The notes: generated by a model from the letters alone, not told the origin. A stretch of DNA of 64,000 nucleotides from Chiloscyllium plagiosum (GCF_004010195.1 NC_057717.1:106455127-106519126), one strand, 5' to 3'. Positions 25,616 to 49,193 are shown, counted from the stretch's first letter. Numbers and translations are program-made.

Positions 25616-25930
25616 CGTAAGTTTGCAGAGTGACAGAAGAGTTTGTGATTGACTTTGTGGTATTAGAGCCCAAGTCCACTTCAGCCAAGCAGGTGTATTC
25701 CTGTCCATCATCTGATCGACTTGCAACGAAATTGAAGACATTTCTCAACCTTTTATCTTCATCCGGAAGACCTGGTTCACCTGTGGAATCTCTCTGGACA
25801 ATCTCACTCCCTCTCAGCCATGTGAGAATGAGTTTGTTGTTTGGATAGACTCTTGGGCCAATGCACTCCAGACTATATGTTCTGTTAATCTCCAGTACTT
25901 CAGGGAGTAATGTAATGCTTATCTCTCGAT
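25616..25930 (-). CDS. Gene A exon 3, Ig domain D2
   Basis: ttttcatag acceptor, gtaagt donor, 315 nt open frame NREISITLLPEVLEINRTYSLECIGPRVYPNNKLILTWLRG...DDGQEYTCLAEVDL...LQTY, resembling ICAM/VCAM D2. Absent from the ORF track because it has no internal start in frame. Confidence 0.92.
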
Positions 25931-26678
25931 CTATGAAAAATAGTTAACAGAATTCTTTGAAATAATAGGTCTCTGAAAACTCCAGTTCTACTCTTGTTTA
26001 CTTTCAACATATCTATCTTTCATTCCATATATAAATAGTCCTTGTGTGCAGTAAAGTTTATCCCAGCCTGTGCCTGGCCCATCAAGCAGTGATCAAATTC
26101 TTTTTCATGCATCATGCTCTACACTATGGCAAGAACATGGAGTTGGGATTCTGATTTAATAGCACTAAAATGCGCACTGTTTTCAATAACAACATATAAA
26201 ATTGTTGCTGAATCAAACCATAAAATGATACGACAAAGGAGGCAATTCTGTTGAGCAATCTTCTCCATTCCCTCCAATCGATTCTACTAACCAGTTCAAA
26301 CCCCACACAGCTGTCAATTCTCCTTCTTCAACATGGTTCCAGTTCTCCTGCATATTTTTAGTTCAAGTGTTTATCATTCATCTTAATGTAACCTTAGGCC
26401 AGGAAATACATGAACTCCTGCAGCAACTCACCAAGCTCCTTCATGAGCTCCCCCCCCCCCCACATCTGTGGCCACTACCATCAGGAAGGGCAAGGGCAGC
26501 AGAAACATGGGAGCACCACAACCTACAGGTTCCTCTCCAAGCCATTCACTATCCCCCCAACGCCTCATCTTCATCAGACTGGTGAGTTTTGGCATTCATA
26601 GTTGGTTGCAATTGTATAATCAGCCAAATCTCACTTTACCCTGTGCTTTGGTGCTGTGTTTGACTAAAGTTAAACACT

Positions 26679-26819
26679 AGGAGAAAGTGAGGACTGCAGA
26701 TGCTGGAGATCAGAGCTGGAAAATGTGTTGCTGGAAAAGCGCAGCAGGTCAGGCAGCATCAAAGGAGCAGGAGAATCAACGTTTCGGGCGTAAGCCCTTC
26801 TTCAGGAATCCTTCAGGAG
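26679..26819. mobile_element. Penelope-derived short element with 15-bp target-site duplication (TSD)
   Basis: ctaaagttaaacact at 26664-26678 and 26820-26834; hammerhead-like motif on the minus strand. Confidence 0.8.
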
Positions 26820-26884
26820 CTAAAGTTAAACACTGCACACAATAAAACAGCAAATTACTGCAGATACTCGAATCTGAACTGAAA

Positions 26885-28700
26885 ACAATAGACAATAGGT
26901 GCAGGAGTAGGCCATTCGGTCCTTCGAGCCAGCATCACCATTTATTATGACCATGGATGATCATCCACAATCAATATCCTGTTCCTGCCTTATCCCCATA
27001 ACCCTTGACTCCACTACCTTTAAGAGCTCTATCCATCTCTTTCTTGAAAGTATCCAGAGACTTGGCCTCCACTGCCTTCTGGGGCAGAGCATTCCATACA
27101 CCCACCACTCGCTGGGTGAAGAAGTTTCTCCTCAACTCTGTTCTAAGTGGCATGCCCCTCATTTTTAAACTGTGTCCTCTGGTTCGGGACTCACCCATCA
27201 GCGGAAACATGCTTCCTACCTCCAGAGTGTCCAATCCTTTAATAATCCTATACGTCTCAATCAGATCATCTCTCAGCCTTCCACACTCAAGGGTATACAA
27301 GCCCAGTCGCTCCAATCTTTCAGCGTAAGACCTCGTGAACCTACGCTGCACTCCCTCAATAGCCAGAATGTCTTTCCTCAAATTTGGAGACCAAAACTGC
27401 ACACAACATTCCAGGTGCGGTCTCACCAGGGCCCTGTACAGCTGCAGAAGAACCTCTTTGCTTCTATACTCAATCCCTCTTGTTATTAAGGCCAGCATGC
27501 TATTGGCTTTCTTCACTGCCTGCTGTACCTGCATGCTTGCTTTCATTGACTGATGTATAAGAACACCTAGATCTCATTGTACTGCCCCTTTACCTAACTT
27601 GACTCCATTTAGGTAGTAATCTGCCTCCCTGTTCTTGCCACCAAAGTGGATAACCACAAATTTATCCACATTAAACTGCATCTGCCATGCGTCTGTCCAT
27701 TCACCTAGCCTGTCCAAGTCACCCTGTATTCTCCTAACGTCCTCCTCACATTTCACCCTGCCACCCAGCTTTGCATCATCAGCAAATTTGCTAATATTAC
27801 TTTTAATATCTTCATCTATATTGTTAATGTATACTGTAAATAGCTGTGGTCCCAGCACCGAACCTTGTGGTACCTCACTGGTCACCGCCTGCCATCCCGA
27901 AAGGCAGCCGTTTATCACTACTCTTTGCTTCCTGTCAGTTAGCCAATCTTCAATCCAAGTCAGTATTTTTCCCCCTATATTATGTGTCCTAATTTTGCTC
28001 ACTAACTTCCTATGTGGGACTTTAACAAAGGCTTTCTGAAAGTCCAGGTACATTGCATCCACTGGCTCTCCCTTGTCCAGCTTCATAGTTGCATCCTCAA
28101 AAAATTCCAGAAGATTAGTCAAGCATGATTTCCCCTCCGTAAATCCATGCTGACTCTGATCTGTCCTGTCACTGCTATCCAAGAGAGTCGTAATTTCATC
28201 TTTTATAACTGACTCCAGCATCTTTCCACCACTGACGTCAGGCTAACTGGTCTATAATTCCCTACTTTCTCTCTCCCTCCCTTCTGGAAAAGTGGGACAA
28301 CATTAGCCACCCTCCAATCCACAGGAACTGATCCTTAATCTATAGAACATTGGAAAATAATTACCAATGCATCCACGATTTCTGGAGCCACCTCCTTACG
28401 TACCCTGGGATGCAGACTATCAGGTCCCGGGGACTTATCAGCCTTCATACTTAACAGTTTAACCAACACTATTTCCTGCCTAATATAAATTCCCTACAGT
28501 TCATCCATTACCCTAGGTCCTTAGCCACTATTACATCTGGGAGATTGCTTATGTCTTCCCCAGTGAAGACAGATCCAAAGTACCTATTCAACTCTTCTGC
28601 CATTTCCTAGTTCCCCATAATAAATTCACCCATTCCTGTCTTCAAGGGCCCAATTTTAGTCTTAACCATTTTTTTTTCTTTTCTCATACCTAAAAAAGCT
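26885..28700 (-). mobile_element. CR1 LINE 3' portion (same family as 1-990)
   Basis: ORFs 27574..28221 and 26971..27546 carry RT motifs and the GYGDKAGTGY C-terminus. Confidence 0.93.
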
Positions 28701-28990
28701 CACTATTCCTCATTTCCCCTTCCCCCACCTCACCCCAGCTCCAACCTTCCAGTTCAGCACTGCCCTCATGACCTGTCCTACCAGCCTATCTTTTTTTCCA
28801 CCTATCCACTCCACCCTCCTCTCTGACCTATCACCTCCATCCCCACCCCATTCACCTATTGTACTCTCTGCTCCTTGGATGCTGCCTGACCTGCTGTGCT
28901 TTTCCAGCACCACTCTGATCCAGACCCATGGAGAGAAAAACAAGCTAACTTTTTGAGACGAGATGACTCTTCATCAAAACTGAAGTGAAG

Positions 28991-29072
28991 TGTGGAGAGG
29001 GCAGCATTTATGTGCAGGGGGTGGGTTGGAGTGTGGAGAGGGCAGCATTTATGTGCAGGGGGTGGGTTGGAG
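28991..29072. repeat. Exact 41-bp tandem duplication
   Basis: tgtggagagggcagcatttatgtgcagggggtgggttggag twice. Confidence 0.9.
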
Positions 29073-31305
29073 TGCTGGGGGAGAAAGGGTGTTGATCGTT
29101 CAGATTAGGTGATTGGAATATGAGAAAGGCAGAAGGATGGGGTGCTTAACTGCCAGGCTGGAAAGAACAGACAGGCCCACTGCGGGGGAGGGGAGGAGAG
29201 GGGAGAGAGTGACAGAGAATGTAATCAGCAAAACTAAAAGAAAGGAAAAGAATGGGTTCACAATTTGAAGGTGCTGAATTCAATACTGAATCTGAAAGAA
29301 CTGCAGATGCTGTAAATCTGGAACAAAAACAGAAGATGCTGGAAAAGCGAGGCAAGATCAAAGGAAGAAGACCAATGGCATTCTCTGCTCCTCCAGGGCA
29401 AGTGCCACACTCTTCTCTCTGCTACTTCACACTCACTCTAACTCTGCTATAGCACACACCTTCCTCCCAGGCTCATGCTCTGCCACTCTCTCGAATGCTT
29501 GCAACAACCTCCCTCACTCTCTCTCAGTTCCAATCTTCCAGACTATGCATTGTGGCTTCTGTCATGCTACTCACTTCATCGGGACACCGCACCTCCTTTT
29601 GACACCTCACCCCCTCCACAATACCCCACAATACCAGCACAAATAGTCGTGCGATCTGATTTCACCTGTCACATGGTGCTGAAATGGGACTGACATAGCG
29701 CATTGCCAAACAGCAAGATGTGTGTCCCTTGGCTGAGGGCTGCTGACCAGCAAGTCAAACTGCCTGCTTGTGTGACTGCTGTAATTGCCACTGAAAGGCA
29801 GGCCAAGTCATAGATGCTGTGACCATGTAGACAGACATGAAGTGAGTGAGCACTAAATGAGCAAGTGAGCAGCCCTGAGACACAACCTGGTCCAGTCTAT
29901 CAGCTGGGTGCCTCAGAGTGTCCCTGCTACAGCTTTTCAATGTCAGTACGTTCTGCTATGCAAATCTGAACTTCATGGGCTGCCTGAAAGTGTATCAGAG
30001 AGGTGCCTGTCTCCTGTCTCCATCCTGTATCTGCTGGTTACCTGTTCCTTCTTCAAGCTGTGGGGTGACCACATCTAAAAAGTGCCTTTCACATTATTCC
30101 AAACTTGTGGAAGCACTATTGTGCTTCTAGCTGACTCTCAAACTCTCAAACTCAATGTTTAAACTGCTCCTTGCGGATGTGGACAGTGGTGTCTCATACT
30201 TCCTACCTACTGCAAGGTGTACAACACATGGGACAGAGCTCCCCTGCTACACCTTTGGTTAACAATCAGAGAGAACAGGGTGGCACTTACACTGACAGTG
30301 TGAAGAAGGTTATCGACCTTCTCACTACATTGCTGTGTACCCCTGCAGGTGGCAGAGAGCTACTTTAACCTGGGTGACAGTCTTGCTCCAGGCTGGTATG
30401 GTCCGGTGCCACAGTCTCCACTACTGGTCAGGGGGTAAAGGAAATCCTCCCTTTGTACCACCCCTCCCAACAGCACCTCCAGGTCCTTGCCTCCAAAGTG
30501 CATGCCAATGTCTGCCTGTCTGCTAAGGCCAGGACAAATATCAGGAACCAGGCAAGGCAGCTTCAGACTTACTGAGTTTGTCCAGGTGCACAAAGGGCTT
30601 TTAAAGATGGCAAAGAGAAAGTGTGGACTGCAGATGCTGGAGATCAGAGTTGAAAAGTGTAGCACTGGAAAAGCAAAGCAGGTTAGGCAGCATCCGAGGA
30701 GCAGGAGAGTCAAAGTTTTGAGCATAAGCCCTTCATCAGAAAAATTCACCAGGTCTCATGGCAAATAAAAACTTCAAAAAGCACAACACAACTTGCACAG
30801 AGCTAAAAGTATGTACAGTTCACTCCCATATGTTTCTACAGGTTACCGGTTATAGGAAATAAAATTTGTCACAGTAAGAGTAGCAAGAACCTTCCATTCA
30901 ATGTCTCACAAACCATTCTGGTTCACTTACTAATGTCCTTCATGAAGAAAATCTGCCATTTTACCTGATCTGGCCTGCATGTGACTCCACACCCACAGTT
31001 TTGTGGTTCACTTATATTTTACCTCTGAAGTGGCCTCTCAAGGAACTCAGTTCAAGGGCAACAAATACTGGCTGAGCCAGTAATGCCCTCATCCAATGAA
31101 GGAATATTAAAACCACGTGACTGTCAACCTGTGCAGGTGCTGAGTATGAACCCATTTCGTACTAATGCAGTCCAGTATCTCAGCTCACATGCTGCAGCAT
31201 CTGGTTGCAAATCATGGAAACTTCTTACAGTCTAAACTATTCCACACCACCTTTTACCTACTTTATGTTTCCTATACAAATATGGAAATGAGAGTTTTCA
31301 CTTAC

Positions 31306-31572
31306 TGTATACTGGGACATTCGCTGTCTTCTCCTTCAGCTCAGAGATACACATCACAGAACATGCTGGTGTTAAATCCCACTGCTGGACAATTGGGAAA
31401 TAGTCATTGTACCAAGTAATGCCCTTTTTTCTGTGAAAGTTTACCCCTGATTTATATTCCACATTTATTGTTGGTTTTGGACATGTTGTGCTGCAGTTCA
31501 TCGCGATGGAACCTCCAAATTCCACGGCTGGGGGGTTTACATCGATTGAAACTTCAAATCCAGTTACAGTGG
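31306..31572 (-). CDS. Gene A exon 2, ICAM-type N-terminal Ig domain D1
   Basis: ttcttggcag acceptor, gtaagt donor, 267 nt phase 1-1. FEVSIDVNPPAVEFGGSIAMNCSTTC...INVE...CSVMC...VY has the four-Cys CxxxC/CxxxC pattern of ICAM/VCAM/MAdCAM D1. Confidence 0.9.
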
Positions 31573-31829
31573 CTGCCAAGAAAACAAACCACAGTAAATA
31601 CTGAGACATACAACCCATTTGAGTCAAGATCATTGGAGCTGATGTGAAACCAGCCCAGTAAGTAGGCTTCTTTTAAAACAAGACACCTCTTTTACGCAAA
31701 TAACAGGAGCTTAGAAATTTACTGTATAGAAGGAAAACACTTGACCCATCAAATCCCTACCAGCTATAAAGTGCTACCTGACCTAATCTGTAGCCTCAAA
31801 GATTACAGTGAATATCCAAATATTGAGAA

Positions 31830-32110
31830 TTTCTTTTCATGGGATACGGGCATCACCGGCAAGACCAGCGTTTGTTGCCCATCCCTAACTGTCCTTGAAC
31901 AAGTGGCTTGCTCAGCCACCACCCAGGGCAGTTGCGAGTCATCCACATTGTTGCAGGGCACGAGTGGCTTGTAGTTTAGAATGATGTGTCAATCCGCTAA
32001 AGGACAATAATGAATCAGATGAGATTTTGTAACAGTTAATGATAGTCTGATTGTCGTCATCATTAAAGCTGTACTTCCAATTTGGGATTTTGCTGAATTT
32101 AAATTCCATT
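31830..32110 (-). mobile_element. Deu/SacSINE-like SINE fragment (related copies near 30900-31105, 41410-41735, 58410-58880)
   Basis: Shared aaccacattgctg...gacattagtgaaccagatg core and a tail shared with the LINE 3' ends at 47290 and 51770. Confidence 0.6.
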
Positions 32111-32139
32111 GGTTTCCACAGGAATCCACATCCAATCAA

Positions 32140-32460
32140 GGGTGGCACGGTGGCTCAGTGGTTAGCACTGTTGCCTCACAGCACAGGGATCCAGGTTTGA
32201 TTCCCACCTCAGGTGACTATGTGGAGTTTGCACATTCTCCCCATGTCTGCATGGATTTCCTCCGGGTGCTCCGGTTTCCTCCCACAATCCAAAGATGTGC
32301 AGGTCAGGTGAGTTTGCCATGCTAAATTGCCCATGGTCTTAGATGCATTAGTCAGGGGTAAATATAGGGTAAGCGTCTGAGTGGGTTACTCTTCGGAGGT
32401 TCAGTGTGGACTTGTTGGGCCAAAGGGCCTGGTTCCACACTGTCGGGAATCTAATCTAAT
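32140..32460 (+). mobile_element. HE1-like V-SINE
   Basis: tRNA head, gtggagtttgcacattctcccc V-domain and aatct tail. Confidence 0.85.
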
Positions 32461-33089
32461 CCCAAGAACAGTGGCTGTCTGGATTACTCAGCTGATGACA
32501 CCACTTCACCAACATTTCCCCTTCTGCCTCTAGCCAGTAAATTCCAGACCCCACCAGCCCCACCTGGTGAAAATCTTTCTATACAACTCCCCTTTAATCC
32601 TTTCACAAATTATATATCTATTCCCCACATTACTAACTTCTGTTAAGTGAAATAGATCCTTCCTATTCAATCTAAATGGCCCCTCATAATAAGGGGCACC
32701 TCAAATACATTTCCTTTCAGCCTCTCTGCTCCAAAGAAAATCATCCCAGCTTATCCAATATCTCTTCACATTTATAATTCTCCGCCTTGACAACTCCCTG
32801 TAAAACCTCTCTGAACACTCTTGAGTGCTATCACATCTTTCTCAAAGTGGCAGATGTGGGTACTGCAGATGCTGGAGATCAGAGTCAAAATTAGAGTGCT
32901 GCTGGACTCCTGATGAAGGGCTTTTGCCCAAAACGTCGATTTTCCTTCTCCTCACGATGCTGCCTGACTGTTGTGCTTTTCCAGCACCACTCTAATCTTG
33001 ACTCACTGAATTAATGGTTTAGTGTTAATACCACTAGACCATCATCTCCTCTAAAGGTCTCACTGTTCCTCTAGAATTCTCTGTATCCT

Positions 33090-34625
33090 ATCTACAGGAA
33101 TAGTGCCAGAAGACTGGAGGATAGCAAATGTTGTTCCCTTGTTCAAGAAGGGGAGTAGAGACAACCCTGGTAATTGTAGACCAAGTAAAAATCACACAAC
33201 ACCAGGTTATAGTCCAACAGGTTTATTTGGAAGCACTAGCATTTGGAGCGCTGCTCCTTCATCAGGTAGGTGCAGTGCTATGAAATCTAGTGCTTACAAA
33301 TAAACCTATTGGAGTATAACCTGGTGTTGTGTGATTTTTAGATTGAACACCCCAGTTCAACACCAGCACTCCAAATCAATTATAGACCAGTGAGCCTTAC
33401 TTCAGTTGTGAGTAAAGTGTTGGAAAGGGTTATAAGAGATAGGATTTATTATCATCTAGAAAGGAATAAGTTGATTAGGGATAGTCAACATGATTTTGTG
33501 AAGGGTAGATTGTGCCTCATAAACCTTATTGAGTTCTTTGAGAAGGTGACCAAACAGGTGGATGAGGATAAAGCAGTTGATGTGGTGTATATGGATTCAG
33601 TAAAGTCTTTGGTAAGGTTCCTCACGGTAGGCTATTGCACAAAATACAGAGGCACGGGATTGAGGGTGATTTAGCGATATTGAACAGAAATTGGCCACCT
33701 GAAAGAAGACAGAAGATGGTGGTTGATGGGAAATGTTCATCCTGGAGTTCAGTTACTAGTGGTGTACCACAAGGGTCCACTGTGTTGGGTCCACTGCTGT
33801 TTGTCATTTTTATGAACGATCTGGATGAGGGTTTAGAGGATGGTTTAGTAAATTTACGGATAACACTAAAGTCGGTAGAATTGTGGATAGTGCCGAAGGA
33901 TGTTGTAGGTTACAGAGGGACACAGATAAGCTGCAGAGCTGGGCTGAGAGGGGGCAAATGGAGTTTAATGCGGAAAAGTGTGAGGTGAATCACTTTGGAA
34001 GGAGTAACAGGAATGCAGAGTACTGGGTTAATGGTGAGATTCTTTGTCATGTAGATGAGCAAAGGGATCTTGGTGTCCATATACATAGATCCCTGAAAGT
34101 TACCCCCCAGGTTGATAGGGTTGTTAAGAAGGCATACAGTGTGTTAGCTTTTATTGGTAAAGGGATTGAGTTTTGGATCAATGAGGTCATGTTGCAGCTG
34201 TACCAAAGTCTGGTGCAGCTGCATTTGGAGTAATGTGTACAGTTCTGGTCACTGCATTATAGGAAGGGTGTGGAAGCATTGGAAAGGGTTCAGAGGAGAT
34301 TTGTGGAGGGAAGGTCTTATGAGGAAAGGCTGAGGAACTTGAGGCTGTTTTTGTTGGAGAGACATAGTTTTAAACTAAAGGGTGATAGATATAGGGCAGA
34401 TGTCAGAAGAGTGTTTCTTTACTCAGAGAGTAGTAGGGGTGTGGAACACACTGCCTGCAACAGTAATAGACTCACTAACTTCAAGGACATTTAAATGGTG
34501 GATTGGATAAACATATGGATGAAAATGGAATACTATAGGTTAGATGGGCTTCAGGTTGGTTTCACAGATTGGTGGAACATGGAGGGCCGAAGGGCCTGTA
34601 CTGCGCTGTAATGTTCTACGTTCTG
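33090..34625 (+). mobile_element. CR1 fragment with a nested Penelope-derived insertion (about 33185-33378)
   Basis: RT motifs; the insertion is flanked by duplicated aatt(g/a)tagacca and has inverted termini. Confidence 0.88.
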
Positions 34626-34944
34626 TTATCATTTACTCCATTGCCTTATTTGTCTTCCCAAATGAAAATGTTTCTCTTTGAAAAGCCTTCTCAGAACCCA
34701 CTCTGTGCTAAGGTTTCGATTTTCTCCCTTCAAGGATGCCAGGTTGCAGAGGATCAGAGATGCAAGCACCAGAATCTGAATATCCACCCATCTCCTTCCA
34801 CTTCAGAAAAACCAGCACAGTTGAACAAAAAGGACCTATCACCTCCATCCCCATCCCCATTCACCTACTGTACACTATGCTACCTTCTCCCCAGCCCCCA
34901 CCCCCCTCCCATTTATCTCTACACCCTGGAGGCTCCCTGTCTCT

Positions 34945-34980
34945 ATTCCTGATGAAGGGCTTTTGCCCGAAACGTCGATT
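34945..34980 (+). ncRNA. Minimal hammerhead ribozyme motif (Penelope type, second family)
   Basis: attc-CTGATGA-a-gggc-tttt-gccc-GAA-ACGT-C-gatt; GUC cleavage triplet; short stem I. Confidence 0.55.
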
Positions 34981-35707
34981 TTCCTGCTCCTCGGATGCTG
35001 CCTGAACCGCTGTGCTTTTCCAGCACCACTCTGATCTAAACCCTGAACAACAAGGACAGCAGAGTCACAGGAGGGAGTTGGATGGCATGGGTACATTTTA
35101 TACAGGATTATACTTGAAGACAATCAACATGTTATGTCGTGGTGAATTATGTTCAGCTGATACTGACCCACAGGAAACGTTATTTCTTGAATAGGAAAGA
35201 AAACTTTTCTTCATAAATGGCCAACTTGTAATTAGTTATTTTAGTTCCAGACAAATTGAAAATGAAAGATCCAGTGTTGAACCGCTCTTCCTTTCCGAGC
35301 GGTCTAGCAACGCACATGATGAAAGATAATGGTGACTGTTAAATATAGGGGTAGACCGAAGCATTAGATCAGATTGCAGCAAACTGATACCATTAACTTA
35401 CCAATTTACAAGGATTGATTTGAGTTATGTGAATGATGCAGATCTCTGTATACGACTATATTTATTTAATCTGTACTTTCCTTAACATTAGTTAGAAGAA
35501 AGTGTGAAACAAAGCCTTTTTTTTATTTCCGGTTGTTAAACTGAAACCAACTAATACACGAGGAAATCGGTAACGGCAAATGTCTTGTTGGAAAAGCCAA
35601 CAGATATCGTTTTTACTGCACCGATGTAGTAAACCTATCACAATACAATACTACTTCAGTCTATGTAAATGTTAAACATTACTCATATTTTAAAATGCTT
35701 TACTTGC

Positions 35708-35774
35708 CTGTTACAATGAACAGCAACTTGAAATGCCAAATACATTCAGCCAGTGAAGTTAGTCTCGAATCCAT
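35708..35774 (-). CDS. Gene A (ICAM/VCAM-like) exon 1, signal peptide MDSRLTSLAECIWHFKLLFIVT
   Basis: ATG at 35774-35772, 22 codons plus 1 nt (phase 1), donor CAG|GCAAGT. Joins exon 2 in frame to give ...LLFIVTATVTG|FEV, a plausible cleavage site. Lies in non-repeat sequence next to promoter-like motifs. Confidence 0.7.
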
Positions 35775-35939
35775 AATTATTAACTTAAAGATGTTTTTAA
35801 AATAATCTGGAATCACACTAATCTTAAAAGTTTCGGAATTTTGAGACTGTAACTAGATCGAGAGGAACTTGCTGACAATTTAACAACTTATTTCCAGACT
35901 AACTCAGAGCACGCTTGAGCCATCTGAGTCCATGTTCCA

Positions 35940-37075: not shown

Positions 37076-40030
37076 GAGTTTCGGGATTGAAGATGATGTA
37101 GCGGTTTGGATCAGAAATTGACTAGCTGAAAGAAGAAAGGTGGTGGTTGATGGGAAATGTTCATCCTGGAGTTCAGTTACCAGTGGTGTACTGCAAGGAT
37201 CAGTGTTGGATCCACTGCTGTTTGTCATTTTTATAAATGATCTGGAGGTGGGCATAAAAGAATGGGTGAGTAAATTTGCAGATGACACTAAGGTGAGTAG
37301 AGTTTTGGATAGTGCCGAAGGATGTTGTGGGTTACAGAGAGACATAGATAAGATGCAGAGCTGGGCTGAGAAGTGGCAAATAGAGTTTAATATGGAAAAG
37401 TGTGAGGTAGTTCAATTAGGAAGCAGTAACCAGAATGCAGAGTACTTGGCTAATGGTAAAATTCTTGGCAGTGTAGATGAGCAGAGAGATCTCGGTGTCC
37501 ATGTGCATAAATCCCTGAAAGGTGCCATCCAGGTTGATAGGGTTGTTAAGAAGGCATAAGGTGTGTAGGCATTTATTGGTAGAGGGATTGAGTTTTAGAG
37601 CCACAAGGTCATGCTTCAGCTGTACAAGACACTGTTAAGGCCGCACCTGGAGTATGGCGTGCAGTTCTGGTCACTGCATTATAGGAAGGATATGGAAGCT
37701 TTGGAACGGGATCAGAAGAGATTTACTAGGATGTTGCCTGGTATGGAAGGAAGGTCTTACGAGGAAAGACTGAGGTACTAAAGGATGTTTTCGTTGGAGA
37801 GAAGATGGTTGAGAGGTGACTTAATCAAGATGTATAAGATAATCAGAGGCTTAGATAGTGTGGACAGTGAGAGCCTTTTTCCTTGGATGGTGAAGGTTAA
37901 CACAAGGGGACATAGCTTTAAATTGAGGGTTAATAGATTTAGGACAGATGTTAGGGATAGTTTCTACACTCAGAGAGTAGTAGGGGCGTGGAATGGCTTG
38001 TCTGCAACAGGAGTAGACTCGCTGACGTTAAGGGCGTTTAAGTGGGCATTGGACATACATTTGGATTATAATGGAATGGTGTAGGTTAGATGGGCATCAG
38101 ATTAATTTCACAGGTTGGTGCAACATCGAGCTATACTGTGCTGTAATGTTCTATGTTCTATGTTCAATTTAATCACTGTCAGACTTTTCTACAGTTTGCA
38201 GTACACTCCCATAACCAATGATCCTAACTTTTCCATTAACTTGTCCATTCAGTTAAACTTTAAAATACTTCATTGTGACTCAACACATAGTTATTTACAT
38301 TGTGAGCAATTTAGGCCCCATATCTCAGGATGGATGTGCTGGCCCTGGGCTGGGTCCAGAGGAGGTTCACAAGAATGATCCCTGGAATGAAAGGCTTAAT
38401 ATGTGAAGAACGTTTGAGGAGTCTGGGTCGATACTCGATGGAGTTTAGAAGGTTGAGGGGGAATCTCATTGAAACTTACAGAATACTGAATGGTCTGGAC
38501 AGTATGGATTTTGGAAAGATGTTTTCATTGAGCAGGAGAGACTGGGACCCAAGTGCACAGCCTTAGAGTAATGACCCTTTCGAAGCAAGATAAGGAAAAA
38601 CTTCTTCAGCCAGAGAGTGGTGCATCTATGGAATTCATTGCCACAGAAGGCTGTAGTGGCCAGGTCTTTGAGTATATTGAAGACAGAGATATATGGGCTC
38701 TTGATTGTCAAAAGGATCTAAGGTTACAGGGAGAAGACATGAGAATAGGGTTGAGAAACCTATCAGCGATGACCGAATGTCAGAGCAGACTCAATGGGCC
38801 AAATGGCCTAATTTCTGCTCCTATGTCATAGAGTCATAGAGATGTACAGCACGGAAAAAGACACTTCGGTCCAACACAGCCAGGCCAACCAGATATCCGA
38901 TATTAATCTAATCCCATTTGCCAGCACCTGTTCTATATCCCTCTAAACCTTTCCTTTTCAAATGCCCATCCAGATACCTTTTAAATGCTGTAATTGTACT
39001 AGCCTCCACCACCTCCTCTGACAGCTCATTCCATACACGTACCATGCTCTGCATGAAAAGTTTGCCCTTAGGTCCCTTTTATATCTTTCCTCTCTCACCC
39101 TAAACCTATGCCCTCTAGTTAAGGACTCCCAGCCCAGGGAAAATACCTTGTCTATTTACCCTATCCATGCCTCTCATGATTTTATAAACATCTATAAGGG
39201 CACCCCTCAGCCTCTAATGCTCCAGGGAAAACAGCCCCAGCCTATTCAGCCTTTCCCTATAGCTTAAAACCTCCAACCCTGGCGACTTCCTTGTAAATCT
39301 TTTCTGCGCTCTTTCAATTTTCACAATATCCTTCCAATAGGAAGGAGACCAGAATTGCACACAATATTCCAAAAGTGGCCGAACCAATGTCCTGTACAGC
39401 CGCAACATGGCCTCCCAACTCATGTACTCAATACTCTGACAAACGTCTTCTTCACTAGGAGAAAGTGAGGACTGTAGATGCTGGAGATCAGAGCTGAAAA
39501 ATGTGTTGCTGGAAAAGCGCAGCAGGTCAGGCAGCATCAAAGGAGCAGGAGAATCAATGTTTCAGGATAAGCCCTTCTTCAGGAAGGGCTTCTTCACTAT
39601 CCTATCTACCTGCAATTCTACTTTCAAGGAACTATGGTCTCTTTGTTCAGCAACACTTCCCAGGACCTTACCATTAAGTGTGTGAGTCCTGCTGTGATTT
39701 GCCTTTCCAAAATGCAGCACCTCACATTTATCTGAATTAATCTCCAACTGCCACTCCTCAGCCCATTGGCCCATCTGATCAAGATCCCGTTGTACTCCGA
39801 GGTAAACTTTTTCGCTGTCCACTACACCTCAAGTTTTGGTGTCATCTGCAAACTTACTAACTGTACCTCTGTGTTCACATCCAAATCATTTATATAAATG
39901 ATGAAAAGTAGTGGACCCCGCACCAATCCTTATAGCACTCACTGACCACAGGCCTCCAGTCTGAAAAGCATCCCTCCACCACCACCCTGTCCTCTACCAG
40001 AATTTGGATGCCAGTTCTGTATGCAAATGT
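37076..40030. mobile_element. Cluster of CR1 fragments (+ 37076-38165, + 38300-38825, - 38830-40030 with a nested short element)
   Basis: RT and C-terminal motifs; the nested element is flanked by cttcttcacta. Confidence 0.87.
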
Positions 40031-42169
40031 CGCATTGTCTGCAATCTAAAACTGGTGCTGTAAAGCACCAAGTTCTGTGATTATTTTTTACTGAACCGGT
40101 CCTGATACAGTATGATATACACATGTCACAGGGAGGCCTTCTGGCTCCGAGCTAGAAAACACTATCCCTGTGCTTTAAGAACTCATCAATATCTGCAATA
40201 TCCATTCCCAGAACCATTGTTGCTTTTGGGGTTTGAATGTAGCTTTAATCAGGCAGATTACAAAGAATTGAAGATCTCTGTGCCTCTGCTGCTGGTTTAT
40301 GTTCTAAAGCTAAAGATGGGTGTTGTTACTTTGGACAGGGTGTTGATCTGCTAAATGGATGTTCATACTACTCACTGGCCTGTCACAGATTCTCCTTCAG
40401 CTGTCCGATAACAGATAACAGATTGACCACAGGTTAGTGCTCAATTGGTTTGCTTCAATGACATCAGGTGAACAGCTTGAGATCTTCAAGTAGTGGTCCA
40501 CAGCTTTTGAGAAATGATGCAAACTCACTCAGGGAACCTCAAAGGACCGGTGGTGCTGGTAACCTCCCTGGTTGAAATAAAGCCTCATTCCTGATGAAGG
40601 GCTTTTGCCTGAAACTTCGATTCTCCTGCACCTCGGATGCAGTCTGTCCTGCTATGCTTTTCCAGCACCACACTATTGACTCTAATCTCCAGCATCAGCA
40701 GTCCTCACTTTTGCCTGGGAGTAATGATGCCTGAATCCTATGTACCTGCAAACTGCTGCTCTTCCCCTGCCTCCATAATAATGGCGGAGTGGGTCACCAA
40801 GGGGTTAAGTCTTACATGGTCTGTGGAGATGTAGGAGATGGGGAGGGCGTTTCTGTAAATCAGTGGGTGGCCTGAACAAGGAAGAAACAGCGAAAACTGT
40901 TAATGCAGGTCTTAGGAGGAATCCAAGCAAAACAAAAATGGGCTTGGAAAAATATTTCCAAAATACAAAAATTGACAAGCAAAGTTTGCATACACGTATT
41001 TGTAAACTTGCAAATTCATTGATCCTGTTTTGATCTAATGATAAAGCCAGCTGTTGCGAAGTGGTGAAGAACAGAACTCACAGCCAAGCCTTTATAAGCT
41101 GCCAAGCTTCAATTCACACATAAAAAGATCCTTCATTAATATAGCACCAAAGTTTCTCAATGTCGTACTTCTATTCAACGTTATAACTTTGGAATTTACA
41201 GAGGCATGCCATATAGCTACAAAAGAAAAGACTCAGTCCTGAATCTGTGTTTACCAATATAATTTATTACCCACTTAATGTTCATGAAATACATCAAATT
41301 CATTATACAATTAAAATACTGCATCTTACAAAATTGAATCAAAACGATCCCGAGAGGTGGTGTGTACGCAGCAATCTTGTGACAAAACAGATGTTAATTT
41401 CATTTTTTTAATCATTCACTCACAGGATGTAGGCATCACTGGCTAGGCCAGCATTTAATGTAGTTCAGAGTCAACCACATTGCTGTGGGTCTGGGGTTAA
41501 ATGTAGGCTAGACTGGGTAAGGATAGCACGTTCCTTTCTTATAGGACATTAGTGAACCAGATGGACTTTTCCAACATTCAACAATGGATTCATGGTCATC
41601 ACTAGAATCTTTATTTCAGATTTTATTTAATTGAATTCAGTCAGATCCACAGCAGGATTTGAACACAGGTTCCCAGAACATTACCTTAGTCTCTGGATTA
41701 ACAGCCCAGTGATAACACCATCAAGCCATTGCCTCCACGTATTGTGTTAATTTGGGTTCAGGTGAGTGAGAATGAGACAAAATACAACCAAAGTAATCTC
41801 TCCCGAAGCAGTTGATATGAGCAGCATCATTGTTAACATCTCATTAATGTAGGCAGCTAGTTGCCTTCTGTTTTCACCATGTTTGTGGTATTGGACTGAT
41901 GTAGGAATTAGCTTTAGCAAGGATATCGAAAATACACAATTTTCACAACTTCTCTGCCTTTCTATCATTTGCCCCATGTTCTCACAATCATTCTGGTCCC
42001 TCCTGTGATCTGGCCAATGTGATCCACTCTCTTATTGCTGTTTCAGTTTCAGCCAGCTCTTCACTCATCCTGAAACAGACCCACAATTCAGGAAGAAGGA
42101 TATCATTTCTGCATAGGGTCAACTTCCTGAAACCACTAAGGCAATTTCTACCCAGTCTTTTCTCACATG

Positions 42170-42625
42170 GTTCAGAAATAATTTACAAGGATGTTGCCAG
42201 GGTTGATGGGTTTGAGTTATAGGGAGAGACCGAATAGGCTGTAGCTGTTTTCCCTGCAGCATTGGAGGCTGAGGGGTGACCTTATAGAAGTTTATAAAAT
42301 CATGAGAGGCATGGATGAGAGACAAGGTCTTTTCCATGGGGTGGAGGAGTCCAGAACTAGAGGGCATCGGTTTAACTTGAAACTGGAAAAATTTAAAATG
42401 AACCTAAGGGGCAACTTTTTCATACGGAGGGTGGTGCGTGTATGGAATGAGCTGCCAGAGGAAGTGGTGGAGGCTGGTACAATTACAATATTGAAAAGGC
42501 ATTTGGATGGGTATATGAATGGGAAGGGTTTAGAGGGACATGGGTCAAATGCTGGCAAATGGGGCTACATTACTTTAGGATATCTGGTTGGCATGGACGA
42601 GTTGGACTGAAGGGTCTGTTTCTAT
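42170..42625 (+). mobile_element. CR1 3' fragment
   Basis: RTRGH...WNELPEEVVEA motif. Confidence 0.88.
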
Positions 42626-44934
42626 GTGAGAGAAAAAGGTTTCTAATTAAATCTATCAACATTAGATACTTGAATATAACCTTTTAAAGAGTCTGTTGTT
42701 AATGTACCTCAACAATGAACTGTTTAATTTTTTCAAAGAAATTGGAAAGACTTCCTGCAAAATGAATCATTTTGATAAGGTAGTGAAGTTTCATTAACCA
42801 AACAAAGATCATGAAAATAACTAAAGTCTCAATGTAGCAAGAAGAAAGATGTAATGAGGCACATGGATGAAAGAAATGCAGAGAGGCTGGATTTCTGCAA
42901 TCCCAGAACCAGAGACCACTGATTCAATGTGATTATCAAAGTAACTAACACTGATTTGAGAAAGCCTAAATGAGTCAGTGTGTGGTGAGGTTGTGAAATG
43001 TGCTGCCTGAGAATGTGATGGAGGTAGATACAGTCATGGATTTATAAAGAGAACTAAAGAAAGGTCATTTTCAGGACAACAGGGAAAGGTAATGGAGTGG
43101 GATGAGCTCAGCTGCTCTTACAGGCAGTGGGCACAGACAAGATGCATCCATTAGCTTCCTTCAGTGCTGCATCTATTCCTCACTTCTATTCAATAAATGT
43201 GAAAAAGGTTCCAACACCTGACCTAAATTTGCCTTTGAGTGTTTCTCTCTGTCCATTTCATGGCAAAGCTTGACATCCTGGTTTGTAGAAGCAGTCACTG
43301 CCTTTCAAACCTGAAAAGCTCAAGTTTCTTAATTCTTTCTTCACACCTCTGTCTGACATGTGAAATGTTTCTTACAGATGAACTCAAGGATCTGCAGGGA
43401 GGATTTGTGACCTGGTCCTGTATCTCACTTGACCATGTCTTGCCAACATCCCAACCAGTTCATATTTCATGTCTTCCTGGACAATTCAGCTCCCCTTCAT
43501 TGGTAGCACAATGCTGTGGATATTGGAAATCTAAAACAAACACAGAGAATGTTGGTGAAACTCAGCAGGTTTGTCAGCATCAGTGGAACGGGTAGCAGAG
43601 TTAGTCTTTCGAATATGGTATGGCTCTTCTTCAAAACAGATCCTGTTGTGTTTCTCTAGCATTCTCTGCATTTGTTACAGCTATTCTTCAGATTGAGATT
43701 CAGGGTACAATGTCAACTTAGATTTGGAGACCAATTGGCTTTTAACATTCCTTAAGATTGGAGTGGGGGAGGGTTTAAGACTAGGGGGCACATTTTTAAA
43801 TTGAGAGGAAAAACATGAGAAGCAACGTTTTTTACGCAGAGGGTGGTTTGTGTGTGGAATGAACTTTCTGAGAAAGTGGTGGATGAGGGTACATTTCCAA
43901 TGTTTAAAAGATATTTGGATAAGTACTCAAATAGGAAAGGTTTGGAAGGATGTGGACCAGAAACTGTGGGATGAGTTTAGTTTCGAATTATGTTTGGCAT
44001 AGACTGGTTGGACCGAAGGTCTGTTTCCGTGCTGTTTGACCCAATGACTTTGTTAAGTTGGAAGATGTGGAGAGCATGCCCAACACTAGAAGGCCAAAGG
44101 GTTGGTCAATGTTGAGGCTGACAGCTCTGGAATTCAGCAAGGTGGTTCTGTTAGAGTCCCAGGGAGCAAGGATATCAAAATAAGTTTACAGTAGAACAGG
44201 CTGAAGGGATTACATTGGCTCCTGGTCTCCTGTTCCTTAGCGATGTGACATAGAAGGCAGGAAGTCCAGATTAGAGTGGTGCTGGAAAAGCACAGCAGGT
44301 CAGGCAGCATCCGAGCAGCAGGAAAATCAACATTTGAGGCAAAAGATTTGCTCTCATGTCTTTCCTCTCAACTTAAAAATGTGCCCCCCCCCCCCATCCT
44401 AGGGAGTGTTAAAAGCCAATTGGTCTCCAAATCTAAGTTGATATTGTGCCCTGAATCTCAATCTGAAGAATGGCTGTAACATCGGGAATCGTCCTGAAGA
44501 AGGGCTTTTGCCCAAAACGTCGATTTTTCCTGCTCCTCGGATACTGCCTGACTGCTGTGCTGTTCCAGTGCCACTCTAACCCTGACTCTAATCTCCAGCA
44601 TCTGCAGTACCCACTTTTGCATAGAAGAAGATTCTGCTAGTGATATAAGTAATAAAGATGCAGATGTGCAAGAGCCAGTCTTAAAAACAAAGGAAGTTCT
44701 TGGAGAGTCACAGCTGGAGAAGGTTACAGAGGTAGAGAAGGAAGACACCATTCAGAAAGAATTAGAGGTGAATATTTGCATAGTTCTCCTGTATCATCTG
44801 CAGAAAGCACAAGACATAGGACAAGAGACCTGCAAACAAACTCAAACCCAGGATATTTTCCAGAGTAGTTAGAAATGCTGTTTTTAAATTGTAAAATCTC
44901 GTTTCATATTCTAGTCCATTGCAGGTTGTTGTGA

Positions 44935-45113
44935 TCATTCCTGATACTGGTTTTCATTGGGAACTTGTGGATTGTTGTTGGGCTTTGCATTTTGTAGTTT
45001 GTATACTCCTGTTTTCTTGACATTCTTGTTCAAGTAATAAATGATGACTCCTGTTGCAAAGATCAATGTAGCCACCACTGATACACTTGCTGCAGCTATG
45101 ATCGTAGCTTTAC
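44935..45113 (-). CDS. Gene B terminal exon, transmembrane plus cytoplasmic tail
   Basis: ttcctcacag acceptor. GKATIIAAASVSVVATLIFATGVIIYYLNKNVKKTGVYKLQNAKPNNNPQVPNENQYQE*. Confidence 0.9.
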
Positions 45114-45454
45114 CTGTGAGGAAGATAGGTGAATGAAATGATTCGTAAAACTGAATTTGCATAATTTTTAAAAAATGAATGAGATTTTTAATGTCCTAAA
45201 GTCATATAGATACTTTGTTCTCTGTGCGTCATGAATATAAATGGAGAAAAACAGTGTGTCAATCTGTCAGATTAGTCAGCTGGGTAGAATGAGAATCACA
45301 GGAGATGCTCAACAGCATGGCCCATCCATAACTGCAGTGTCAGGTGAAATGGAATTAGTCTAATGAAAATGTTCAAAATTGATTGCTGCTCCTGTTTCAG
45401 TGCTTTCTCAGTTACTAATCTCATGATCTGTTTCCACTGATTAGGGATCTGTAG

Positions 45455-45950
45455 TTGCAGATACATTCAATTTTGTTCAAATAGCACACAATCTGTAAGC
45501 AGTCAGTCCATGTAATATTTTATAAATTCCTACTTTGGAAATAGAACCAATCTGCCTCAAGATTGGGATATAGATAGATTCTAAACTCACAGCTTTAATG
45601 CATTGTCTGAGCTGAGATGTCACAATTTTTTATAAAATCTTATGTTATCTTGGAACTATGATTTGAAAGAAGTTCTGGGATTTACATATTAATGAATTGA
45701 AACCTGCATCCCCATTTTAAGTGATTAAAGACTGAACAGCAATCTAAGTTTGTTCAATACATCGCATCAATTGTATGACACTTTGATCTTTTACTCTGAA
45801 CTCTGTGTCCTATGATCCTGCCCGACTAGCTACCAGATGAAAGAGCAGCGCTCCGAAAGCTTGTACTTCCAAATAAACCTGTTGGACTATAACCTGGTGT
45901 TGTGTGATTTTTAACTTTGTCCACCCCAATCCAACACCAGAACCTCCACA
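45455..45950 (+). mobile_element. Penelope-derived element (same family as 63177-63815)
   Basis: Ends in gcgctccgaaagct...ggactataacctggtgttgtgtgatttttaac. Confidence 0.7.
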
Positions 45951-46343
45951 TCATGTCTACTGGTTTAAGAATTCTTTCACTTTCTCTCTGACTTCCTGAA
46001 GTCTCTCTGTCTGTTTACAAAAGTCCACTCTATGATCAAGTTTCTGGACACTTGCACAAACTTTCCCATAAAGGCCTACAACCGTTCATTTCTTCCAGTA
46101 AGTACATGGAGATTGTTTTCCCCCACTGTGTAAGTGAAGTTGTGAGAGGATGAACTTTTAAATCTGTTGGAGGTTGGAATGAAACAGAAGAGACCTTGGA
46201 AAAGGTTTTGTCTGATCTTTCGACTTTGGTGTTAGACAGGCCAAAACTTTCACTTTTTTTTCTGTTTGAAGTAGAGATTTACACCACGGGTTTTTAGTGA
46301 AGTTAAATAATTTAATCAATCAGCTTTGATATTTTTGATTCAC

Positions 46344-46622
46344 CTTCGATGCTGATGTCCACGATCTTCTCTTCAGCTCCAAGTTGGTTCATAACTGAAC
46401 ATTTATATGTTCCACTATTTTTAGTTGTAGCATCAGAAATACAGAGAACTCCTGAAGGATTAATCACAACATTGCTTTGTTTGGGCCATTCCCATTTCAG
46501 TGTTGGGCGTGGATTTCCTTGGTAGTCACATTGTAATATAATAGATTCACCTTTACTGAAATATACTGGAGACTTGGAGACACTTTTGTTATTTGCTAAT
46601 AGAGCTGTAATGATTGGTTTAT
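46344..46622 (-). CDS. Gene B membrane-proximal I-set Ig domain exon
   Basis: ttttacag acceptor, gtgaat donor, 279 nt. YKP...IILQCDYQGNPRPTLKW...SGTYKCSVMNQLG...VDISIEG is homologous to gene A D6. Confidence 0.9.
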
Positions 46623-47289
46623 CTGTAAAACAAAATGATTTGAAATTAGGAGCAATGCAACTTCCAGCTGATCTTGTTAAAAAGCAATGATATCTCAATT
46701 TAATTTAAATGGTTTAATTGTATGTGATGTGCGAAACAATTCTGTGACCAGATTTCTGCCCTTGTGCAAATTGCCCAGAACGGACTCACTGCTTATTCCT
46801 AATGGTGGTGGTGGGGGGGGCTTTGCTGCAGAGCTTTGGGCCACCTGCAATATGGGAATGCAATCTGAATCCTGGTAAACTGGAAAACTCCACAATGATG
46901 CCACCAATATACCACACTGTTATTATGCTTGTTTCTAATTCTCCCCAAAGAAGGCTTGAATTTATTTAACATGGAGTATCTTTAATAAACAACTCAAATG
47001 TCCAATATACAAAAAGTCACTCTGAAGGACATTGACAATAATATAATTAAGTTGAATTGCCTGGGCATTATTTATGGTGAGATGATTATAGGAGGATTTG
47101 TTGTGTAAGGAAGTATGGCCGTGGCTGTATAATTGGAACAGTCTGTAAAAGATGGATTTAGGAAATTTATCAGAGATATTTCAAATATACATCATATCAT
47201 GACTATGATTTTGAATGGTTTACTGAGACTGATTTTCTCGTGTTCGGGGGGTTGAGAAATGAACATGGTGACAGAGAGGGCTTTTTAGA

Positions 47290-47525
47290 AAGCAGATACA
47301 TGGGAACACCACCACCTTCAGGTTCCCCTCCAAGCCATTCACCATCCTGACTTGGAAATATATCCGCCTTCCTTCATTGTCACTGGGTCAAAATACTGGA
47401 ATTACCTTCCTCAGGGCATTGTGGGTCAACCTACAACACATGGACTATAGCGGTTCAAGAATGCAGCTCACCATCACCTTCTCAAAGGGCAACTAGAAAC
47501 GGGGAATAAATGCTGGCCCAGATCC
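47290..47525 (+). mobile_element. LINE (CR1/L2 superfamily) 3' end; related copy at 51770-52015
   Basis: gggaacaccaccacc...ttcaagaa.gcagctcacca...aataaatgctggcc. Confidence 0.65.
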
Positions 47526-48878
47526 CACAAATGAATTTAACTAAAGTATTTTGATGGATTTTATTTAGTTGAGTTTATGCTGCTAACTACTTGCAATTAT
47601 TTTTGTGTGCTTAATGAATAGTTTGGAGTGTTGTAATTACCAATCTTTGTCGTTGCTTATGACATATTCATTGTTATGTTGAGAACATTCTTAGATGTCA
47701 TTTGTTGCTTTATAAATGAGATTTGAGTCAACTATATGGCAGATTAATGTGGAACTTTCCTGTAATGTATTTGTAACAATAAAATGTTGATTAAACGGTG
47801 GCACAATTTTATACACAATGAGTTGTCCAAATTTTCATGAGGTTTTGCTCCCTATTGACTAGACAAATGCTATATTTAAATCAAAATTTCCAAGGTCAGA
47901 ATTTTAAAAAAATTATTGAGGGAATAGCAATCATAAACTTGATGTAAACTGGAAATTTGTACAGTTAGAGAGCAGTCTTTCAATCTCCAATCTGTTCAAG
48001 GCTGCTATGGCAACCTTGTGGAGTGGAGATGGGATGGAATCACTGCATGAGTTGATAATTAACTCACTTGGCTAAGGTTTCTATGAATAATTTTGTGCCA
48101 ACTTACAAGCACGTGTACAACCAAGGAATAAGAGTAATTTGTCAGGCTCTTTGAGCCTGTTCTGCCATTATTAAAATCATCAATGATCTGATTTTAACCT
48201 CAATTCTACCCACTTCTTCATAGGCATAATCATCTTTAATTTTCTTAATAATCAAGAATCTATTTATCTCCACCTTAAAAATAGTGGCAATCCAAAGATG
48301 TTCAGGACAGGTGACTTGGCCATGCTAAATTGCCCATAGTGTTAGATGCATTAGTCAGGGGTAAATATAGGGTAGGGGAATGGGTCTGGGTAAATTACTC
48401 TTCGGAGGGTCAGTGCGGACATGTTGGGCCGAAGGGCCTGTTTCCATATTGTAGAGAATCTAATCACTGTATCTTTCTGGGTGATCAGTGCATTTCAATA
48501 AATACCAGCTCTGTTACCATATCAACCTGGTGAAGTTACTCTATCTCCTGAGTTGAAAGGGATTAATTTTTTGCTTAATAAAAAATTAAAATACTGCAGA
48601 TCCCACAAGTCAAAAATTTAAAAAAAGAAAATATTGAAATACTCAGCAATTGAAGAAGCATTTCAGGAGAGTAAAACTGAGTTAACATTTCAGGTCTGTG
48701 GGTTTTCTGAACTGCTTTGCAGACCTGTATTCCCAGTGATTTTAGGTTTAAAATATCAGCAAAGTCCTTTCAACACAGGAGATTTCAATGTGATCCAAAA
48801 CTTTACTGATAAAGGCCCCTTATTGCTGCAACCAGAACATAGAGATGAATCAACAAAACCTGTTACAATTTAACTTAC

Positions 48879-49193
48879 AGTACGTTTGCAGAGTGACAGA
48901 AGAGTTTGTGATTGACTTTGTGGTATTAGAGCCCAAGTCCACTTCAGCCAAGCAGGTGTACTCCTGTCCATCATCTGATCGACTTGCAACGAAATTGAAG
49001 ACATTTCTCAACCTTTTATCTTCATCCACAGAACCTGGTTCGCCTGTGGAATTTCTCTGAATAATCTCACTGCCTCTTAGCCATGTGAGAATGAGTTTGT
49101 TGTTTGGATAAACTCTTGGGCCAATGCACTCCAGATGATATGTTCTGTTAATCTCCAGCACTTCAGGGAGTACTGTAATGTTTATCTCTCGAT
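48879..49193 (-). CDS. Gene B Ig D2 exon
   Basis: ctttaacag acceptor, gtaagt donor, 315 nt; near-identical to gene A D2. Confidence 0.92.

Follow-up and report, generated by a model that had tools for sequence, protein, structure and literature searches.

An exon evolving in concert among otherwise diverged ICAM-like genes of the shark Chiloscyllium plagiosum

The window analysed here is a 64,000-nt stretch of the genome of Chiloscyllium plagiosum (GCF_004010195.1, NC_057717.1:106455127-106519126; C8:106455127-106519126 in the coordinates used below), in which two ICAM-like genes, A and B, lie in tandem on the minus strand. Our subject is the exon encoding their second immunoglobulin (Ig) domain, D2, which is nearly the same in the two genes while their other exons have diverged. 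Gene A has the long form, with exons for six Ig domains (D1 to D6) and a last exon for the transmembrane (TM) segment and cytoplasmic tail, and gene B has the short form, in which D1 and D2 are followed by a single I-set Ig domain and by a TM/tail exon whose tail is 30 residues long. The exons of both genes are listed here with the intron flanks of D2, in window positions; G1, G2 and G4 are further copies to the left of the window, described below.

35709-35774, minus strand: signal-peptide exon joined to the D1 of gene A in database protein P0014, with an apparent GC donor
31306-31572, minus strand: D1 exon of gene A, ICAM_N (Pfam PF03921, E 2.5e-7, 30.8 bits), type A in the D1 tree
25931-25966, minus strand: acceptor-side intron flank of the D2 of gene A, aligning with the other copies, with a branch-point-like TTAAC and a pyrimidine tract and with a 7-nt deletion in A
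25616-25930, minus strand: D2 exon of gene A, 315 nt, phase 1-1, AG/GT splice sites, matched by profile to D2 in the solved structures of ICAM-2 and ICAM-5
24654-24855, minus strand: remnant of the D3 exon of gene A, its 5' 93 nt and acceptor gone and replaced by sequence matching an intron of paralog G1
22837-23124, minus strand: D4 exon of gene A
15846-16091, minus strand: D5 exon of gene A, interrupted in frame by a TGA at 15880-15882, where paralog G2 also has TGA and paralog G4 has GGA
15185-15493, minus strand: D6 (I-set) exon of gene A
12793-12986, minus strand: TM and cytoplasmic exon of gene A, with the stop codon
52809-53072, minus strand: D1 exon of gene B, ICAM_N (Pfam PF03921, E 4.3e-9, 36.4 bits), D1 type B, a type also found in rays
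49194-49236, minus strand: acceptor-side intron flank of the D2 of gene B, about 42-43 nt, conserved in all five copies
48879-49193, minus strand: D2 exon of gene B, 315 nt, phase 1-1, AG/GT splice sites, its intron-exon border crossed by contigs from two studies with 0 differences
46344-46622, minus strand: third and last Ig (I-set) exon of gene B, by Pfam match and with the support of contig X19 record 18
44935-45113, minus strand: TM and cytoplasmic exon of gene B, with the stop codon

Both D1 exons score above the curated cut-off of PF03921, which is 21 bits. In comparisons of sequence profiles only, a profile of related shark proteins (alignment A1) matched the ICAM-2 structure 1zxq with an E of 6.6e-22 over residues 3-175, and the ICAM-5 structure 4oi9 with an E of 2.5e-12. 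The encoded proteins have a type I membrane layout, with a signal peptide, Ig domains, one hydrophobic TM stretch (read by eye) and a short tail. Judged from these comparisons, A and B are members of the ICAM family of Ig-superfamily (IgSF) adhesion molecules. The glutamate of an 'IEG/VEY' motif in D1 (E62 in alignment A1) is invariant across 12 aligned shark and ray proteins, and it sits at what we take to be the position of the integrin-binding glutamate of human ICAMs such as ICAM-1. As in mammalian ICAM-1 to -5, an ICAM_N D1 is followed by a C2-type D2 within a type I membrane architecture; the shark genes have three or six Ig domains, and sequence does not establish here a one-to-one orthology to particular mammalian members.

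One contig of run X19 (record 18) joins 46342-46622 straight to 44877-45111, with an ambiguous GT dinucleotide at the junction, and another (record 23) spans exactly 52809-53072, the D1 of gene B, plus 82 letters placed elsewhere. Since the Ig exon is joined directly to the TM exon in the first and the D1 exon is covered exactly by the second, gene B is spliced in the X19 sample, a run only guessed to be RNA. A signal-peptide exon of B, 22 codons long, was seen just past the right end of the window at L024:1282-1347 (which would be window 65282-65347), about 12 kb upstream of the D1 of B; it matches its counterpart in P0023, a B-type protein of Hemiscyllium, at 100% identity.

The two D2 exons differ at 19 of 315 nt (94.0% identity) and in 7 of 104 full codons, exactly the differences counted by hand in the original prediction, which was made from the sequence alone. 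The tract of about 140 nt with one mismatch that it described was also found, with a length of 144 nt (plus-strand offsets 5-148). Outside D2 the genes are highly diverged, as had been claimed: identity in D1 is 30.6% for amino acids (about 28% had been estimated) and 53% for nucleotides, and amino acid identity amounts to 39% in the last Ig domain and to 32% in the TM/tail. Similarity was further said to stop at the splice sites, which holds in the main. Ungapped comparison of 50-400 nt on the flanks gives 25-36% identity, the random level, yet the blastn match runs on for 7 nt beyond the donor and, with gaps, for about 36-43 nt into the acceptor-side intron. Apart from these short flanks the introns on either side of D2 cannot be aligned between A and B.

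Synonymous divergence (dS) sets D2 apart from its neighbours. Between A and B it is 0.119 in D2, where the nonsynonymous divergence (dN) is 0.043, and 1.06 in D1. The last Ig domain and the tail, measured on open-reading-frame stretches that include a few intron codons, reach 1.11 and 1.62 respectively. The dS of D2 is thus about one ninth that of neighbouring exons. A per-exon comparison of this kind had been proposed as a check, and its outcome is the one that gene conversion predicts.

The pair within the window is part of a larger set. Exon mapping was extended to 180 kb on the left of the window and 20 kb on the right. Matches to D2 number exactly five in the whole 3.56-Gb genome, all of them in C8:106.30-106.52 Mb (about 215 kb, on one contig), and ICAM_N D1 matches above the cut-off also number exactly five genome-wide, all in the same cluster. 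The five D1-D2 units are A and B, within the window, and G1, G2 and G5 to its left. The original prediction, framed on two exons, was therefore right about the pair and understated its extent, as the genome holds five D2 copies with 91-98% amino acid identity. All five are intact, 315 nt long and bounded by AG/GT, and pairwise they differ at 2-27 nt (dS 0-0.16, dN 0.008-0.072). The ratio of dN to dS (omega) between these paralogs is 0.3-0.5, and 16 of the 35 variable sites across the five copies are third codon positions, as expected of protein-coding sequence. The tandem copies lie 23-200 kb apart, four in direct orientation and the fifth, G5, assembled in the opposite orientation within a 20-kb block. 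Each of the five D1 exons has its own downstream D2, and the exons from D3 to TM are also multicopy; shared constant exons of the protocadherin or UGT1A type are not the layout here.

In eight of the ten pairs of D2 copies the alignable block runs from -42/-43 to +322/+339 relative to the exon. Between distant lineages it amounts to about 370 bp, the 315-nt exon being accompanied by about 42 nt of intron on its acceptor side and 7-24 nt on its donor side. The exceptions are G2-G5, with 2477 nt in common at 97.7%, introns included, on a background of 84-96%, and G1-A, in which the downstream intron is also common. Long-form paralogs resemble one another at 84-98% in the introns between D6 and D2, and D3 exons of A and G5 type, when compared inside one species, have 94-100% identity. 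In these long six-Ig genes exchange or duplication spans D2 to D6 together with the introns, and only D1 and the tail stay distinct; conversion and unequal crossing-over cannot be told apart among them with these data.

Trees built exon by exon across species had been named beforehand as the decisive test, with conversion expected to make D2 cluster by species and D1 by paralog. Of 154 candidates in a search with the D2 of gene A, 53 proteins reached E <=1e-5. All of these are labelled as elasmobranch, under database names that vary from ICAM1/2/3/4/5-like to VCAM1-like and hemicentin-like. Many of these models fuse tandem genes, and the 53 proteins hold 72 D2 units; with the five local units added and one partial D2 removed, 76 D1-D2 units were available. 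After 15 had been dropped (8 within-species duplicates, 6 lacking a complete D1 and 1 that equals A), 61 were kept, with 16 species labels. Gene types were read off the D1 tree and fixed first, and the D2 tree was made afterwards. The D1 tree contains three ancient types, namely B with 20 rows (including sawfish, stingray and skate), G5 with 6 rows (support 98) and A with 35 rows, and type B is parted from the rest by a branch of 0.72 with support 99. It requires 2 changes of type and 32 changes of species.

The D2 tree is incongruent with the D1 tree. It requires 18-19 changes of type and 19 changes of species, the minimum for species being 15. Six of the 12 species with at least three rows form single-species D2 clades, each mixing D1 types, with support of 98-100:

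Scyliorhinus (Stor): 11 rows, support 100/96
Mustelus (Mast): 8 rows, support 100/95
Heterodontus (Hfra): 5 rows, support 100/96
Stegostoma (Stig): 5 rows, support 100/92
Pristiophorus (Pjap): 3 rows, support 100/93
Heptranchias (Hper): 3 rows, support 98/89

The three hemiscylliids jointly form one D2 clade (11 rows, 99/85) and the two lamniforms have a common one (7 rows, 96/92). In approximately unbiased (AU) tests, a type-B clade is rejected by the D2 data with a log-likelihood difference of 253.6 (p 6e-87), and species clades are rejected by the D1 data (p 0.0011 for Stor, p 1e-66 for Stig). Identities agree with the trees. For shark D2 the median is 95.2% when types are compared inside one species (68 pairs) and 82.7% when one type is compared across species (129 pairs); for D1 the order is reversed, with 44.3% and 56.8% respectively. 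Within a species, D2 is 88-100% identical between gene lineages, apart from one pair at 78.5% that involves a partial model. D2 is also the slowest domain, with 76-95% identity between shark species for a given type and 66-75% identity in comparisons with rays. Homogenisation of D2 recurs in eight shark clades, and the pattern is present in independent assemblies of eleven other sharks; a sawfish, the only ray in which both types are represented, does not show it, its D2 exons being only 61.8-68.3% identical between types (3 pairs) and splitting by type. D2 thus groups by species and D1 by paralog type, as expected under conversion.

Within the C. plagiosum cluster the D2 of G1 may be a mosaic. 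A span of 33 nt (positions 134-166) contains seven sites at which G1 goes with B, a clustering with a permutation p of 5e-6, and three other sites (21, 57 and 233) group G1 with A and are incompatible with the G1-B sites. The seven-site cluster fits a short conversion tract, but the pairwise run tests given below are not significant. As for the age of the exchanges, sister-species contigs (run X14) over the B locus are 96.2-98.7% identical, introns included, and neutral divergence from the sister species is about 0.03. The D2 of B differs from the other copies by a dS of 0.12-0.15, about four to five times the sister-species divergence, and it groups with the B-type D2 of Hemiscyllium (90/85). 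The dS of D2 is 0.057 between A and either G2 or G5 and 0 between G2 and G5. In every one of the three hemiscylliid species, D2 of A type is paired with D2 of G5 type; support is 97/86 and 90/81 in the two others and only 73/0 (G2-G5) here. These dS values and groupings indicate that exchange among the long forms is recent and repeated, and that exchange with B is rarer and older than the split of those genera.

The pattern is very probably the product of recurrent interlocus gene conversion confined to a block of retained homology of about 370 bp, together with strong purifying selection. We infer that non-allelic gene conversion, a form of recombinational repair, would copy the D2 of one paralog onto that of another among the tandem copies. 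Because only about 370 bp can be aligned between the distant lineages, exchange between them would be confined to this block. The process may be self-sustaining: purifying selection would slow the change of D2 and so keep the copies similar enough to recombine, and D1, the last Ig domain and the tails would have diverged beyond the reach of exchange. According to this model, the sawfish, with a D2 that has diverged between types, would represent a lineage in which the loop has broken. The claim that interlocus conversion keeps D2 constant is supported by the species clustering and by the ninefold reduction in dS; it has to be qualified in that the exchange between A and B is old and that purifying selection acts as well.

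Several observations weigh against this explanation. The A-B pair is not freshly converted, its dS of 0.12 being about four times the roughly 3% intron divergence from the sister species, and B, with a D2 that groups with the Hemiscyllium B ortholog, behaves as an ortholog within the family. A check with GENECONV had been proposed; in GENECONV-like permutation tests of the longest identical run, none of the pairs was significant (A-B p 0.13, G1-B 0.06, G2-B 0.06, with a range of 0.06-1.0). There is no GC excess at third codon positions in D2 (0.41-0.43) relative to D1 (0.38-0.43), hence no sign of GC-biased conversion, a signature that is common in conversion but not required for it. Logan contigs break inside the D2 exon, and the interior variants of B are without read confirmation; cross-species letters inside the exon are a mixture of paralogs. 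The cross-species trees compare proteins only, and not synonymous sites, and their input consists of database gene models, fused and chimeric ones among them. Finally, the five lamniform type-B rows and the sawfish rows cluster partly or wholly by type.

Birth-and-death evolution with exon shuffling is the least unlikely of the alternatives, although we consider it improbable. It holds that gene bodies from D2 onward duplicated recently by unequal crossing-over and that ancient D1 exons were recombined onto them. The resemblance of the long-form introns from D6 to D2 and the near-identity of D3 between the A and G5 types within species speak for it, and the several decaying copies described below suggest turnover. 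However, B has only the D2 block of about 370 bp in common with the long forms, between introns that cannot be aligned on either side and with a different downstream domain. Sharing of this kind requires two exchange points, one on either side of a single exon, and this amounts to a conversion-type event. Moreover, the short-form gene has a species-specific D2 in at least five shark species.

A second alternative is purifying selection alone, under which the D2 exons would be as old as those of D1 and their protein would evolve very slowly. D2 is indeed the slowest domain, and its conservation between orthologs of different species shows that strong purifying selection does act on it; the omega between paralogs also speaks for this reading. 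Selection at the protein level does not lower dS, however, and it cannot explain a dS nine times lower in D2 than in the adjoining exons. Neither can it give paralogs the species-specific residues that make D2 group by species, a grouping strong enough for type-B monophyly to be rejected by the AU test. It is therefore very improbable that selection is the sole cause. The original prediction had taken the conserved synonymous sites as an argument against purifying selection alone, and the dS values bear this out, with the addition that selection on D2 works alongside conversion.

About as implausible is a nucleotide-level function, such as an embedded RNA, splicing enhancers or a regulatory element, that would conserve the synonymous sites of D2. 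The acceptor-side flank of about 42 nt, with its branch-point-like and pyrimidine signals kept in the five copies, is what such a function might preserve. Against it, the D2 of B with its flanks has no Rfam match at E <=1, and the RNA fold of exon and flanks has a z of -1.11, with 16 of 100 shuffled sequences folding as well. The share of third positions among the variable sites (16 of 35) and the species clustering are not explained by it either. An assembly or polishing artefact, in which one D2 was collapsed onto or overwritten by another, has some ground in the 20 N gaps of the region, the probably misoriented block (see below) and the contig breaks inside the exon, but it can be all but dismissed, as private substitutions distinguish the five copies, the intron-exon border of B is spanned with 0 differences by contigs of two studies (X1 over 48436-48913, X3 over 48541-48908), exon contig depth is 50-75 against 11-17 for single-copy sequence, which fits several near-identical copies, and the same pattern is seen in independent assemblies of other sharks.

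Given recurrent conversion, one may ask whether selection for a uniform D2 contributes to it. As an added factor such selection is possible, though we would not call it probable. In its specific form, which is slightly more doubtful still, D2 would be a species-specific constant docking domain, and an identical D2 would be required of every shark ICAM-like paralog, short or long, by a common partner, for instance an integrin subunit or a protein acting in cis. Conversions that carry each new D2 variant across the cluster would then be fixed by selection. Such a regime would have lasted through the whole shark radiation and would have lapsed in at least one ray lineage, in which D2 differs by 32-38% between types.

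The other half of the original prediction concerned D1, which was said to be diversifying and to face ligands or pathogens, giving an adaptive design with a variable and a constant part. Ongoing diversification finds no support in our results, in which the D1 difference between A and B goes back to ancient lineages kept as orthologs across sharks (and, for type B, in rays), with an omega between types of 0.4-0.6. Nothing in this analysis supports a ligand- or pathogen-facing D1, and the adaptive design also failed to find support. Gene A looks decayed: as assembled, its D3 has lost the acceptor together with the initial 93 nt, and its D5 contains the TGA noted above. The decay of A makes the design doubtful for that gene and leaves the cross-species pattern untouched. 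Within type A, the D1 exons of A, G1 and G2 were seen to be near-identical in their first half (dN 0.05), with A differing from G1 and G2 in the second half by a dN of 0.23 and a dS of 0.22-0.24. The omega among the type-A D1 copies of this genome is 0.93-2.39, with 12.5 nonsynonymous against 1.5 synonymous differences between G1 and G2; two of the copies are decaying. This may reflect a mosaic, or relaxed or positive selection.

Decay is found in other copies too. G2 (C8:106361772-106397659) has the same TGA in D5 as A, AC in place of AG at the D3 acceptor, a 21-nt deletion and a change of cysteine to glycine in D6, and a TGA in D1; its D2 is intact and 2 nt from that of G5. G1 has lost the 5' part of D4. 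In all decaying copies the D2 exons are intact. The genes that look intact are B and the long form of G5 type. The TGA common to A and G2 was either inherited by duplication or copied between paralogs.

Concerted evolution is a known process, and the ICAM family is a new setting for such exon homogenisation. The closest analogue is exon 4 of major histocompatibility complex (MHC) class I genes, which encodes the alpha3 domain and for which homogenisation across loci within species is described and co-evolution with shared partner proteins proposed by the authors (PMC1403747). The likeness lies in a membrane-proximal Ig-like exon that is homogenised, in contrast to the distal, ligand-binding part, where sequence particular to the locus or of ancient origin is retained. 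The present case differs in that the genes are ICAM-like adhesion genes of sharks, the block is bounded by introns that cannot be aligned, and the candidate partner of D2 is hypothetical. Gene conversion and shuffling of the N domain of CEACAM genes and homogenisation of the ligand-binding domain of paired leukocyte receptors have also been reported (PMC8860441, PMC3210942). Those systems reportedly resemble ours in being tandem IgSF clusters in which one Ig-domain exon is exchanged and other parts, such as the tails, stay distinct. In them the N-terminal domain is reported to be the homogenised one; in the shark genes that domain is diverged, and it is the second that is kept alike. A search of open-access papers and preprints found no account of ICAM-like genes evolving in concert, whether in sharks or in any other group; one paper mentions the emergence of ICAM1 and VCAM1 in fishes and not this cluster (PMC7916592).

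Among mammalian ICAMs, we know of no concerted evolution specific to D2. The shark cluster is a clean natural case of exon-precise concerted evolution between lineages that split before sharks and rays diverged, in surroundings saturated with change. It offers a system in which to ask whether conversion is kept up passively by a homology threshold or by a partner that demands a uniform domain. On the practical side, domain-by-domain orthology calls and database names for shark ICAM- and VCAM-like genes will mislead, and gene models in such clusters become chimeric.

The scaffold around G5 has features of its own. C8:106424922-106444921, lying between 500-N gaps at C8:106424422-106424921 and C8:106444922-106445421, is a 20-kb block with the G5-type D1 and D2 on the plus strand. 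The matching exons from D3 to TM (G4) are on the minus strand just left of the block, and the order becomes collinear with that of G2 once the block is flipped. In P0017, a protein of a sister species, a G5-type D1 is joined to the G4 tail. The block is probably misoriented in the scaffold, a real inversion being possible. A signal-peptide-like exon at C8:106393523-106393588 (minus strand), 91% identical to the start of P0017, lies between the D1 and D2 of G2 on the same strand.

P0014, a database protein of 673 residues, consists of the signal, D1 and D2 exons of A (35709-35774, 31306-31572 and 25616-25930) and of D5/TM exons of G4 (C8:106413148-106413381 and 106414933-106415175), with a 100% match, about 65 kb away. 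It looks like a chimeric gene model arising from the broken D3 of A and the misoriented block. P0014 would suggest that the D1-D2 of A serve as alternative first exons for a different gene, to whose exons they are spliced; this reading was considered and is less likely, since the broken D3 acceptor of A and the misoriented block explain the join.

Much of the intron and intergenic space of the window is filled with repeats. Reverse-transcriptase-like open frames or repeats, 75-85% identical, were seen at 69-587 (plus strand), 26974-28242 (minus strand), 17139-18342 as compared with 33378-34617, and 37122-37556 (plus strand); they look like fragments of long interspersed nuclear elements and explain most of the self-matches of the window. 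An interspersed repeat of about 125 nt has at least seven copies in the window, with 83-96% identity, and contig depth there reaches millions; one of the copies lies 350 nt upstream of the D2 exon of B. Its copies are:

16851-16972: copy of the repeat of about 125 nt
26680-26808: copy of the same repeat
30615-30742: copy of the same repeat
39458-39585: copy of the same repeat
49541-49626: copy of the same repeat
59811-59938: copy of the same repeat
60982-61106: copy of the same repeat

Local direct duplications of about 95-96% identity were noted at 10516-10729/10967-11180 and at 18337-18512/18513-18686, the latter a perfect tandem, and an inverted pair with 95% identity is formed by 63174-63360 and 63596-63784.

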